64,000 nucleotides of DNA, taken from the NCBI GenBank assembly GCA_000004695.1, contig CM000151.3:7296001-7360000 (forward strand), written 5' to 3'. The position numbers were made by a program, and so were the translations under genes. Each line of letters starts with the position of its first letter. Position 1 is the stretch's first letter. The notes under the pieces were generated by a model. It did not search any database, had not been told where the DNA came from, and saw only the letters and a list, made by a program, of their open reading frames with translations. This DNA is from Dictyostelium discoideum (taxonomy: Eukaryota). Shown here piece after piece: positions 5,061 to 9,814 of this stretch.

Positions 5061-5616
5061 CCCTATTCTTTGAAAAAGTAAATTTGAAAATGTAAAAATA
5101 GTTTTTTTTTCAAAAATAAAAGATATTTATTTCATTACACTTTAGAGAAAATTATTAAATTTGATTTTCTTAATTTTAAACAAAAAATAATAACAAATAA
5201 TTTTTTTTTTAGTATTTCATTTTTTTTTTTTTTTTTTAAAAAAATAAGAAATACTAAAAAAAAAAAAAAAAATTACAATAATATTATAATAAAATAGATT
5301 ATTAAAAAAAAAAAGTAATATCCTAAATTTTGATTTTTTTCTTTAATTTTAAAGGGGAGCCAGTTTGGGATGTGTTCACCAGCAGTAACACATCACCAAA
5401 CCAACAAATTTTGTTTGGTACATATATTTCGAAGTATGAATTTGTCAAAGCACTAAATAAAGTGATGGCGACAATTCATTGAGATTGATTAATTATTTTG
5501 GAAGAATAATTGAGTTACTGAAGATAAAAATTTTTTCACACTCATTTAAATACCAATAATAATCATTTCACCATTATGGGAATTTAAAAATATCTTAATT
5601 TTTGGCCGCTTGTGAA

Positions 5617-5647
<31 letters not shown>

Positions 5648-5661
5648 AAATATTAACTGAC

Positions 5662-5807
5662 TTATAATTTTGAGAAAATTTTATTATTAATCTTCACACG
5701 ACGATTACTAAAATGATATATTGTCATGAAAGTATTATTTTTGTTATTTATAATTTCATCATAAGAAAATGTGTTTGAATTAATTTTTCTTATTCTATTA
5801 TGGAATA

Positions 5808-5905
<98 letters not shown>

Positions 5906-6357
5906 GTAATTTCTAATGGATTAAAACAATTAAACATTAAACCTATTTTAGTATCTAAAAGATATTCTTTTCCATCTACCCATTTTAAAATATTTGAATA
6001 ATGAATATTATTTTTTTTATTATTATTTTTAAATGATTTGACTAATTTTATATTGAAACCATTTTCATGTAAAAATAAACCAAATACTATATTTAAATCT
6101 GAAAAATTAGAAGGTAACCTATCAATTAAAACCTTTTTAATTGCATTTTCATTTGATATAACTATAATTTCATTTGATTGATTATCATAATTAATTATAT
6201 TTGTTGATTTTATAAAATTATAATGTAATTCAGTTATATCACTTATATTTATTATTGAAAATTCTTGATTATAATTTAAAAAATCAAAAAATAATTTTTT
6301 AATATTATAAAAACTATAATAATAATGATATAAATTTTTATTATTATTATCCAACAT
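5662..6357 (-). CDS. arylamine N-acetyltransferase-like paralog, predicted non-catalytic (active-site Cys replaced)
   Basis: Single exon, first ATG at 6357 within ORF 5662..6477. Homologous to the upstream NAT gene: AIKKVLIDRLPSNFSDLNIVFGLFLHENGFNIKLVKS versus IVKRLLIDGEGGICTTLNILMGMFLYEFGIPVRLIKA, and SNILKWVDGKEYLLDTKIGLMFNCFNPLEI versus SNLIQWPLNSKWYMVEVGIGFFGSLNPIEL. The GGxC catalytic Cys motif and the F-E-N-L like motif are missing. It carries a 30-residue poly-Asn insert. Confidence 0.55.
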
Positions 6358-6629
6358 TTTGTGTAATGGGAGTTTATAAAAAATAAAAAAAAAAAATAAA
6401 AAAAAAAAAAATCCAATAATAAAAAGAGCAATGACAAAAACAAAATTAATTAAAAAAAAAATAAATAAATAAAACAATAATAATAATAATAATAAAAGAT
6501 TTTAAATTTTTTTTTTAAAAAAAGTGTGTGTAATTTTAAATCGTTTAATGTTTAATTAATATTTTATTTAGGGGTTAATAATATTATTTTTTTATTTTAT
6601 TTTTTATTTTTTAATTTTTTTTTTTTAAT

Positions 6630-7499
6630 TTATATTTGTTTTTTTATATTTTCATTTAAATTAATTTTAAAATAATTTAATAATAATTTTTTTAATTGAT
6701 ATTGATCAGTAATTGTAATAGTATTTTCTTTTCCATCTAGGAAACCAATTTTTAAACAATCATGGTGAAAATAGTAATAACCTTTTTCAAATTTTAAAAA
6801 TGAAAATAATTTTTTCTCTGTAATTTCAAGGTAACGTTGGTGACAATCTAAAATTTCACCATGAGTAATTTCACTTGAACTGAATTGAAATAAATTTAAA
6901 TAACTATCCATGCCAGGTTTTTTCTCTTGATAAATGTATGATGAATCATCTGAATTCTCAATACAACGATAGTAGGAGTGATTGCCAGCATTTGATAAAA
7001 CACCAATTTCATTACCCAATTCAATTGGATTTAATGAACCAAAGAAACCAATTCCAACTTCAACCATATACCATTTACTATTTAATGGCCATTGAATTAA
7101 ATTTGAAATGTGGCATGAAAAATGTGGAACTATATTAAATTGTGATTGTTTATATGCTTTAATCAATCTAACTGGAATTCCAAATTCATAAAGAAACATA
7201 CCCATTAAAATATTTAATGTTGTACAAATACCACCCTCACCATCAATTAGTAATCTTTTAACAATATAATCTAATCCCCATTCATCAATACCATGACAAA
7301 GGTCAAAATTATTATATGGTAATTCTTCAACAAACTTTTTTTGTAGAAATGCAATATCATCCAAAGTTTTTAATTGAAAATCTTTTTTTAATTTCAATTT
7401 ATGAATTAATAATTCTTTAATATTATATTTATGACCATTAATTAATTTTTTATATGAGAAAATTTCATTATTATTATTAATTTCATTTAAATAATCCAT
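6630..7499 (-). CDS. arylamine N-acetyltransferase (NAT) family protein
   Basis: Intact 289-aa ORF. ELPYNNFDLCHGID corresponds to the NAT VPFENLNIHCGD motif. RLLIDGEGGICTTLNILMGMFL corresponds to the NAT RNRGGWCLQVNHLLYWAL catalytic-Cys motif. Sits in tandem, same orientation, with the paralog at 5662..6357. Confidence 0.7.
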   Translation of the reverse strand: MDYLNEINNNNEIFSYKKLINGHKYNIKELLIHKLKLKKDFQLKTLDDIAFLQKKFVEELPYNNFDLCHGIDEWGLDYIVKRLLIDGEGGICTTLNILMGMFLYEFGIPVRLIKAYKQSQFNIVPHFSCHISNLIQWPLNSKWYMVEVGIGFFGSLNPIELGNEIGVLSNAGNHSYYRCIENSDDSSYIYQEKKPGMDSYLNLFQFSSSEITHGEILDCHQRYLEITEKKLFSFLKFEKGYYYFHHDCLKIGFLDGKENTITITDQYQLKKLLLNYFKINLNENIKKQI

Positions 7500-7759
7500 T
7501 ATTTTTTTATTTTTTTTTTTTATTTTTTTTTTTTGAAATAATATTAAATAATTTATTTTTTTTATTTATTTTTTCGAATTTTAAAAATAAAAAAAAAAAG
7601 GTTTAAAAAGTTAGAAATAATTAAAATAAAAATATGATAAAATAAAAAAAAAATAAAAAAAATAATAAATAGTTAACATATTTTTTTTTTTTTTTTTTTT
7701 TTTTTTGTTTTTTTTTTTTTACCATTTAAAATATCAAACCTCTTGTCACACACGCTTGT

Positions 7760-7793
<34 letters not shown>

Positions 7794-8446
7794 AATTAAT
7801 GTAAAAGTGTGTTTATTGGGTGTGTTTTTTTTTTTTAAATTTAGATATATACTTTTACATTAATCTTTTTTTTTATTATTTTAAATTTTTTTTTAATTTT
7901 TTTTGATTTTTTTTTTTTTTTTTTTTTTTTTTTGGTCATAAAAAAATGCTCCACAGTAGTTAATTCAATAAAATTGTAATTTATAGATCTATATTTGTAA
8001 AATATTAATTGGAAAAAATAATAAAAAAATTTAAATTTTTTTAAAATTAATTTTTTGACAAGCCTGCCAAAAAATACTAATAAAATAAATAATTTATTTA
8101 TTTTACCAGATTTAAAAATTAATTTTATTTTGAAAATAAAAAAAAATATGTTTTTTAAAAATTGAAAAGATTTATTTTATTTTTTATTTAATTTTTTTTA
8201 ATTATTTTTTTCCCTTTGGAATTTCCACATCCAAAAAGATTTAATGTAAAAATACTTTTTTTTAAATTAAAAAAATAAATTTGATCAAAATACTTTACGT
8301 GTATCTTATTTAAGATTTTTTTTTTAAAATTTACCATTGTTTTTTTTTTTTTATATTTAAAGATTTAGCAAGTAATCATATATTTACCTATATTCTGATT
8401 AATTAAAAATTAAAAATAAAAAAATTAAAAAAAAAAAAACTTCCAA

Positions 8447-8769: not shown

Positions 8770-9814
8770 TTATTTTTTAGCAGCAGCTTTTGCTTCTTCT
8801 TTACCATTAAGATATTTTTCAATTAAAATATTTTCAGATTCTAATTTTGAAGCTAATTTCTTTGCTTGTTCTTCAAAGGAAAGACTTGAGAGTTCAGAAT
8901 CTAAATCGACAGGGGTACCAGTGTATGGAACAGTTTCTGGATGTTCCAAAAAGGATTGCCATTTATGAATATCAGAGAATTGAGCAGCGAGATGTTGACG
9001 AATTAAACCGAGACCCAAACGTTCAGCTTCAGCTCTCTTTTTATCTTCATCGATTTTCTTTTCGAGTCTATCTTTTTCGTCGAGGATTTCAGCGAGTTTT
9101 AATTCGAGGATAGCTTTATCTTTTTCACATTTGGCAAGACGAGATTCGAGATCGAGTTTAGCCAATTTCTCATCATCGAGACCACGAAGGGCATCGTCAA
9201 TCTTTGATTGGAGATCGGTGATACGAGAGTTTCTATTATCATTTTGTTCTCTGATTTTGTTGAGAGCATCTTCGAGATCCTTCTTTTGTTTGACCAATTC
9301 CTCTTGAGAGTGTTTCTCACCTTCGAGAGATTGTTCGAGTGAGGCTAATTTATTGTTTAATGAATTTTGACTGGCTTCAAGTGCTTCTCTTTCCTCTTTG
9401 GCACGGAAAGCATGGAAGAACAATGAAGTGTAAAGTACGATTGAACGTTCATCGACATTACCTTTGGAGAGGGATTCAGCTTCTAAAAGCTTTGGAATAC
9501 CTAATCCTTTCTCTGCGAAATCAAAGGCAGCATTCAAACGAGCAATATTATCATGACCTTCATATTCATCATATTTGAAAACGGTTGGATCATATTTATG
9601 TGCTAATGCCAAGAAACCATGACCATCACGGAAACTAGATTTAAAGCCTGTGATATTAACATTATTATAACCTTCTGTGGTCTTTTTACACCAAGCTAAT
9701 AAACCTTCCTCTGATGATTTATCACCTTCATTAATAACTGAAATACGATATTTACGATATAATGTCCATAAAAAACCCAAAATCATCTTTTTATTATTAT
9801 CAACAAATTCTTTT

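Follow-up and report, generated by a model that had tools for sequence, protein, structure and literature searches.

Work on arylamine N-acetyltransferases (NATs) has mostly treated them as cytosolic enzymes of xenobiotic metabolism whose Cys-His-Asp catalytic triad is obligatory, and domain III in established NAT structures helps to hold coenzyme A (CoA). In Bacillus cereus, the NAT3 protein of PDB entry 4dmo is reported as an active Cys-His-Glu enzyme, under the name (BACCE)NAT3, in PMC11213898, and in the same paper (BACAN)NAT3 of Bacillus anthracis is a shortened, expressed and apparently non-functional NAT. Here we describe a pair of NAT-family genes on the minus strand of Dictyostelium discoideum chromosome 2, found in a 64,000-nucleotide stretch of contig CM000151.3 (assembly GCA_000004695.1, positions 7,296,001 to 7,360,000; hereafter the window, in whose numbering all coordinates are given). 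The upstream gene, copy 1 (6630..7499), codes for a full-length NAT of 289 amino acids. The downstream gene, copy 2 (5662..6357), codes for a truncated, Cys-less NAT-fold protein of 231 amino acids followed by a stop codon, counted from the first in-frame ATG and supported by its open reading frame (ORF), its orthologues, its ratio of nonsynonymous to synonymous substitution rates (dN/dS) and a structural model. We favour, with moderate confidence, the reading that copy 2 would be a pseudoenzyme, a non-catalytic protein of NAT fold kept by selection, probably residing in the peroxisome, the location being the less certain part.

The copy 1 protein matches exactly D. discoideum AX4 DDB_G0276993, listed in UniRef as 'Arylamine N-acetyltransferase 5' (NAT5), and an identical protein is annotated in a second D. 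discoideum assembly. The original prediction, made from the letters of the sequence, held that the two same-strand genes lie 270 bp apart and are paralogous. The pair was confirmed with a measured spacer of 272 bp, and the homology extends outside the low-complexity tract: the two proteins share 29% identity over 139 amino acids (E = 1e-14, BLASTP), and comparison of the copy 1 and copy 2 orthologue profiles gave a probability of 98.85% (E = 4e-17, 138 columns, hhalign). Alignment to the Pfam profile PF00797, which had been proposed as a check, was run and both genes match. Copy 1 scored 50.8 bits over profile positions 1-237 of 240, and copy 2 scored 22.4 bits over positions 4-138 of 240, marginally under the cut-off of 22.8 bits. 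An exhaustive profile search, from which a family alignment of 104 sequences was built, retrieved copy 2 inside the NAT family, to which it belongs by homology.

The catalytic residues of copy 1 are readily located. Its Cys92 codon (TGT, 7224..7226), in the motif GEGGIC, aligns to the Cys of 4dmo, and the upstream copy thus has the intact motif ascribed to it by the original prediction. The catalytic His130 codon lies at 7110..7112. The position of the canonical catalytic Asp is taken by Glu147 (7059..7061), in YMVEVGIG, which aligns to YLIEVGFG of 4dmo. This residue is Glu in all orthologues of copy 1, and the Asp column holds Glu in 8 of the 104 family sequences. Copy 1 therefore carries the nucleophilic Cys of a catalytic NAT together with the Glu version of its acidic residue, and its predicted triad is a non-canonical Cys-His-Glu like that of the active B. 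cereus NAT3.

Copy 2 departs from this arrangement at the nucleophile. The family, hhalign and PDB alignments place Phe85 (TTT, 6103..6105), one base away from TGT, at the catalytic-Cys position; hhalign and the PDB alignments concur in pairing F85 with Cys92, H119 with H130 and D135 with E147 of copy 1. The reading RLPSNFS at this site, and with it the absence of the catalytic Cys, was as predicted: Phe85 stands in RLPSNF and Pro82-Ser83 occupy the Gly-Gly columns of the 104-sequence alignment. A cysteine of copy 2 falling on the catalytic position, named beforehand as a finding that would refute the prediction, was looked for, and the column holds Phe85. Across the family this column is Cys in 97 of 104 sequences, Phe in three (copy 2 and two strain variants), Ser in three and Pro in one, and the codon at the Cys position of copy 2 is TTT in all five orthologues. 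D. dimigraforme and D. firmibasis have Ser in place of C144, the only Cys in the entire protein, and copy 2 therefore has no substitute cysteine. The other two triad positions are kept: the His119 codon (6001..6003) and the Asp135 codon (5953..5955, at the canonical catalytic-Asp position in the family alignment and hhalign) are invariant in the encoded residue among orthologues, with a synonymous GAT/GAC change at Asp135 in D. firmibasis, and the family His column holds His in 103 of 104 sequences. Copy 2 thus retains the His and the acidic residue of a catalytic NAT and lacks the nucleophilic Cys of the (R)GGxC motif. Among the near-invariant family columns (N56, G82, G83, C85, N89, L96, H119, D135 and P147 in copy 2 numbering), it departs at P82, S83 and F85 and keeps the other six. 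One of these, N56, bears on the claim that a FENL-like motif has been lost: PYNNF has indeed become NIINY, but the family-invariant Asn itself is retained.

A second departure, missed in the original prediction, lies at the C-terminus. Copy 2 is without all of domain III: its end corresponds to residue ~210-230 of copy 1, and it is about 60 residues shorter than its full-length relatives. The three-domain architecture with the alpha/beta lid of domain III is thus absent from copy 2, whereas copy 1 is full length. The last residues, VKINNKIFSKL, are aligned by MAFFT either to a copy-1-like 'EKKLFSFL' or to the family C-terminus '(Y)FKIN', varying by alignment. The product would consist of domains I and II only, a shortened NAT fold. 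An AlphaFold2 model computed on a 104-sequence alignment reached a mean predicted local distance difference test (pLDDT) of 79.8 and a predicted template modelling (pTM) score of 0.78; an earlier run on a five-sequence alignment (pLDDT 45.8) was discarded. In the model, confidence is high for the helical domain I and for the domain-II beta-strands, and the chain stops where domain III would start. A Foldseek search of the PDB returned NAT-family structures for all 40 best matches (E<=3.4e-3), with query-normalised template modelling (TM) scores of 0.46-0.59 covering domains I and II only. The top match was 4dmo (E = 3.7e-8), followed closely by human NAT1 and NAT2; transglutaminase-like and cysteine-protease folds were listed after the NAT structures. 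As modelled, copy 2 adopts the NAT fold over domains I and II.

Copy 2 also carries an AAT-repeat tract (5812..5904) in a domain-II loop with low pLDDT. The 30-Asn insert that had been described is present, but a length count gives 31 residues, not 30. The tract is hypervariable, its longest run being 7, 21, 31, 39 and 39 Asn in five genomes, and differs even within D. discoideum. An intron was considered at this place and rejected: the sequence lacks GT...AG, the reading frame runs on without a break and what lies downstream is under constraint in that frame. The tract is coding. The segment that follows (5674..5811, residues 183-228) is supported by dN/dS and the model; it codes for the three final strands of the domain-II beta structure, and its counterpart in copy 1 is residues ~170-208. 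Its strands (187-193, 196-204 and 209-220) have a pLDDT of about 90. The model leaves the Asn tract and the five final residues disordered, with tail values below 50, and the C-terminus of copy 2 accordingly looks flexible.

The original prediction had left two options for copy 2, a pseudoenzyme or a decaying duplicate that still has an open frame. Orthologous loci were compared from a divergent D. discoideum strain (L001), D. firmibasis (L002), D. dimigraforme (L003), D. cf. discoideum (L005), two D. citrinum strains (L004 and L009) and an assembly with an identical 231-residue gene call (L010). The copy 2 ORF is intact in six genomes from four taxa (the window, L001, L002, L003, L005 and L010). 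Start, stop and frame are the same across the intact taxa and every indel is in frame, at a between-species dS of 0.51-0.73 and dN of 0.08-0.14. Over the whole gene, dN/dS (Nei-Gojobori) was 0.16-0.25 for all between-species pairs, with bootstrap upper bounds <=0.41, and 0.17-0.22 for three species pairs (Fisher P = 1e-10 to 7e-15). Constraint is strongest in a 77-codon core running from KKVLID to PLEIT, the former active site (dN/dS 0.07-0.11, P<=1e-7), which is as tightly constrained as the intact neighbour copy 1 (0.08-0.15 by the same method). The 49 codons after the Asn tract gave 0.07-0.20 (P<=1.5e-4); with constraint on both sides of the tract, copy 2 is therefore read through the repeat.

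Constraint and an intact ORF together reject the decaying-duplicate reading for D. discoideum and its relatives. That copy 2 is a dead NAT5 duplicate whose frame has stayed open by chance is highly improbable. Such a pseudogene would suit the loss of the catalytic Cys and of domain III, the gain of a long Asn tract, the Pfam score just below threshold and the within-species dN/dS intervals, which are wide (0.10-1.43). It is already contradicted, as regards the period after these species diverged, by the conserved ATG, stop and frame at this level of synonymous divergence, by the purifying selection (P<=1e-10 for the three species pairs) that extends past the Asn tract in the same frame, and by the lack of a specific relationship between copy 2 and copy 1 (see below). 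Disabling mutations are confined to a remnant in D. citrinum, and dN/dS in the intact genes is far below 1. Of the two options, the pseudoenzyme is the better one: copy 2, a homologue of an enzyme family, has no Cys at or near the nucleophile position, hence lacks an essential catalytic residue, and is under purifying selection. Selection maintains the gene in the group formed by D. discoideum, D. dimigraforme and D. firmibasis, and acts most strongly in the surroundings of the former active-site cleft.

Several observations weigh against a selected role, or narrow it. The 67 N-terminal codons of copy 2 are relaxed, with dN/dS at ~0.5, and Nei-Gojobori estimates of dN/dS are approximate in a genome of 20% G+C. 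Only fragments of copy 2 are left in the two D. citrinum genomes (L004 6865-7930 and L009 4865-5800), which also speaks for the pseudogene. In one strain a frameshift and an adjacent inversion accompany fragments matching about residues 7-29 and 161-185, and the other has a fragment matching residues 183-201; the function of copy 2 is therefore dispensable at least there. Finally, a profile search found no copy 2 orthologue outside the D. discoideum group, D. purpureum included. The segment downstream of copy 2 is inverted in D. citrinum relative to D. discoideum, and the two D. citrinum strains differ by an inversion there.

A recent tandem duplication, which the original prediction implied, did not hold up. 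The identity of copy 2 across 170 shared columns is 28% to copy 1, close to the 26% found with distant outgroup homologues of non-Dictyostelium type, versus 38-39% to two homologues with Ser in place of the catalytic Cys (P0014, D. purpureum DICPUDRAFT_81051, L008 8001-8918; and P0018 of D. dimigraforme), 36% to NAT6/P0013 and 35% to P0016. BLAST scores were 83.6 bits with P0013, 75 with P0016, 73.6 with P0014 and 64 with P0018, versus 52-63 bits with copy 1 orthologues. A bootstrapped neighbour-joining tree, whose deep nodes are weakly supported, put copy 2 next to the Ser-type pair and grouped copy 1 with P0011, P0012 and P0015, not pairing the two genes. Judged from these comparisons, copy 2 is an old paralogue of NAT5 rather than a fresh duplicate, and was secondarily lost in D. 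citrinum. The three best D. purpureum homologues (P0014 to P0016) lie in unrelated neighbourhoods, without synteny with the locus.

Other members of the family, all full length, likewise have no catalytic Cys: P0014, P0018 and P0036 carry Ser (GGVSS or GGNSS) and P0100 carries Pro. A Ser-His-Asp NAT lineage is possible on this basis. The Ser codon of P0014 is TCA and gives no ordering of a Cys to Ser to Phe path. D. discoideum NAT6 (P0010/P0110, DDB_G0277549, 487 amino acids) is itself a head-to-tail repeat of two halves of ~240 residues, each a Cys-bearing NAT ending after domain II, and its D. dimigraforme counterpart P0013 is single (285 amino acids). Either D. discoideum has lid-less NAT units more than once, or the annotation fused two neighbouring genes.

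With Phe85 at the nucleophile position, Pro-Ser in place of Gly-Gly, no conserved Cys and no domain-III lid, copy 2 would be incapable of Cys-dependent ping-pong acetyl transfer. Since the cleft is under the tightest selection and His119 and Asp135 are invariant, a non-catalytic action is the most likely, in which the kept cleft may bind a ligand or a partner. The retained pair and the tightly constrained cleft would also fit residual or altered catalysis, and this weighs against the reading we favour. Copy 2 could then be an enzyme with changed chemistry, His119-Asp135 acting with water or another nucleophile, such as the invariant Ser86 or Ser83, in hydrolysis or in a non-classical transfer. 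We regard this as unlikely. In its favour, the core is as tightly constrained as the neighbouring NAT, the nucleophile has been replaced elsewhere in the family (by Ser in P0014, P0018 and P0036) and the dictyostelid Ser-type proteins P0014 and P0018 are the closest relatives of copy 2. However, Phe is not a possible nucleophile, copy 2 has Pro-Ser at the nucleophile-positioning Gly-Gly turn, the cleft-closing domain III is missing and no precedent was found in the literature searched.

The peroxisomal part of the reading we favour comes from the extreme C-terminus. Copy 2 ends in Ser-Lys-Leu and a stop codon (5662..5673), a tripeptide of the peroxisomal targeting signal type 1 (PTS1) class that is invariant in five orthologues, all of which end in [SAC][KRH][LM]. 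Its codons vary synonymously (TCA/TCT and TTA/CTA), all genes stop at the same point with TAA or TAG, and residues at -4, -5 and -8 vary among orthologues while -SKL stays. Among 53 ATG-initiated ORFs of at least 100 amino acids from ~115 kb of Dictyostelium DNA, only copy 2 and P0016 have a [SAC][KRH][LM] end. P0016 (D. purpureum; L006 8001-8897) is a full-length, Cys-bearing NAT that ends in -AKL, and P0011 (D. cf. discoideum, 277 amino acids), also full length and Cys-bearing, ends in -SKL. A C-terminal SKL is enough in Dictyostelium to bring green fluorescent protein (GFP), red fluorescent protein (RFP) or a yeast enzyme into peroxisomes (PMC13256971). The ending of copy 2 suggests Pex5-dependent import: the invariant -SKL would be recognised at a flexible tail and would direct the protein into peroxisomes.

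A non-catalytic NAT-fold protein that has a non-working -SKL and stays in the cytosol, where it might for instance bind or modulate active NATs, is a rather unlikely alternative. Typical NATs are described as cytosolic (e.g. PMC11087921), which speaks against the peroxisome, as does the nature of the signal: it is only three residues long, and the orthologues come from close species, which makes the invariance of -SKL modest evidence. Against a cytosolic protein stand the retention of -SKL through synonymous substitutions while nearby positions vary, and the PTS1-type ends of two other dictyostelid NAT paralogues against none of the 51 other sampled ORFs. The tail is moreover predicted to be flexible and exposed, and SKL alone suffices in this organism.

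The endings of P0011 and P0016 hint that part of the dictyostelid NAT family is peroxisomal. As a tentative extension, copy 2, P0011 and P0016 may form a peroxisome-directed NAT branch in which copy 2 would be a dead, lid-less binder within the organelle. In such a branch copy 2 could bind an acyl-CoA or an aromatic amine; or it could act as a PTS1-bearing carrier for piggy-back import of a signal-less partner such as NAT5. No NAT-family protein described as peroxisomal was found in the literature searched.

The remaining features of the locus concern its surroundings and its annotation. The A+T-rich intergenic spacer (6358..6629, 272 bp) is alignable between close species and presumably holds the 3' end of copy 1 and the promoter of copy 2. 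G+C content is ~16-32% across the window, in which no further NAT-like ORFs were found. A cortexillin-type gene (8770-9786, minus strand), with a calponin-homology domain and a Cortex-I coiled coil in orthologous calls, lies upstream, and members of the D. discoideum group share the order cortexillin, NAT5, copy 2. Long homopolymer A/T runs flank both genes (5320-5640 and 7500-7800). Just 3' of copy 2 stands a short motif with some G+C, CACAAGCGGCCAAAA, of which D. cf. discoideum has a partly conserved version, CGCAAGTGGTCAAAA. Third-party annotation (TPA) records made by the NAT nomenclature group cover at least (DICDI)NAT1 (CBL43356.1) and NAT6 (CBL43361.1, DDB_G0277549). No record naming copy 2 was found, and its exact sequence is absent from the protein collection searched. 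In recent strain assemblies copy 2 is a 'hypothetical protein' (ACTFIR_006189, ACTFIW_004279 and the 231-residue call in GCA_054883475.1), and in the last of these an identical 231-residue product is called as a gene. Literature searches on DDB_G0276993, on lists of DICDI NATs, on NAT pseudoenzymes and on peroxisomal NATs returned nothing specific.

Copy 2 lends itself to the question of what use the NAT scaffold has without acetylation, in a genetically tractable organism and beside a paralogue with a predicted Cys-His-Glu triad, and it raises the question whether some protist NATs work in peroxisomes. For annotators it carries a warning: a gene just under the Pfam threshold was left as a 'hypothetical protein', and loss of a catalytic residue should not be taken for pseudogenisation unless selection has been tested. 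The wider significance is limited, since pseudoenzymes are common, the clade is narrow and the gene has been lost in one close species. The literature searched yielded no description of a NAT that is kept by selection, has neither the Cys nor the lid and carries a PTS1-type end.

Set against the PF00797 NATs (NAT5, NAT6, and DICPUDRAFT_81051, _151049 and _149795 of D. purpureum), copy 2 shares the sequence and predicted fold of domains I and II. It differs from them by Phe for Cys, Pro-Ser for Gly-Gly, the missing domain III, the 31-Asn insert and the -SKL end. By homology it is a NAT, and of the features examined it fails the catalytic definition of one on two, the Cys and domain III. Its nearest relatives by identity (38-39%) and in the neighbour-joining tree, the Ser-for-Cys proteins P0014 and P0018, likewise have no Cys nucleophile but are full length (305-354 amino acids), keep Gly-Gly, have a Ser as a possible nucleophile and carry no PTS1 tripeptide. 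Among solved structures, (BACCR)NAT3 of B. cereus (PDB 4dmo) gave the best sequence match to both genes and the best fold match to copy 2. Its Glu-for-Asp triad is also that of copy 1, whereas copy 2 is eukaryotic and truncated and has the canonical Asp but no Cys. (BACAN)NAT3 is, like copy 2, a naturally truncated NAT homologue, but its truncation is a frameshift in a bacterial gene that is not reported as selectively maintained, in contrast to the clean conserved ORF, nucleophile substitution and targeting-type C-terminus of copy 2. With the PTS1-bearing peroxisomal matrix proteins of Dictyostelium, finally, copy 2 shares the C-terminal -SKL, its own location there being a prediction.

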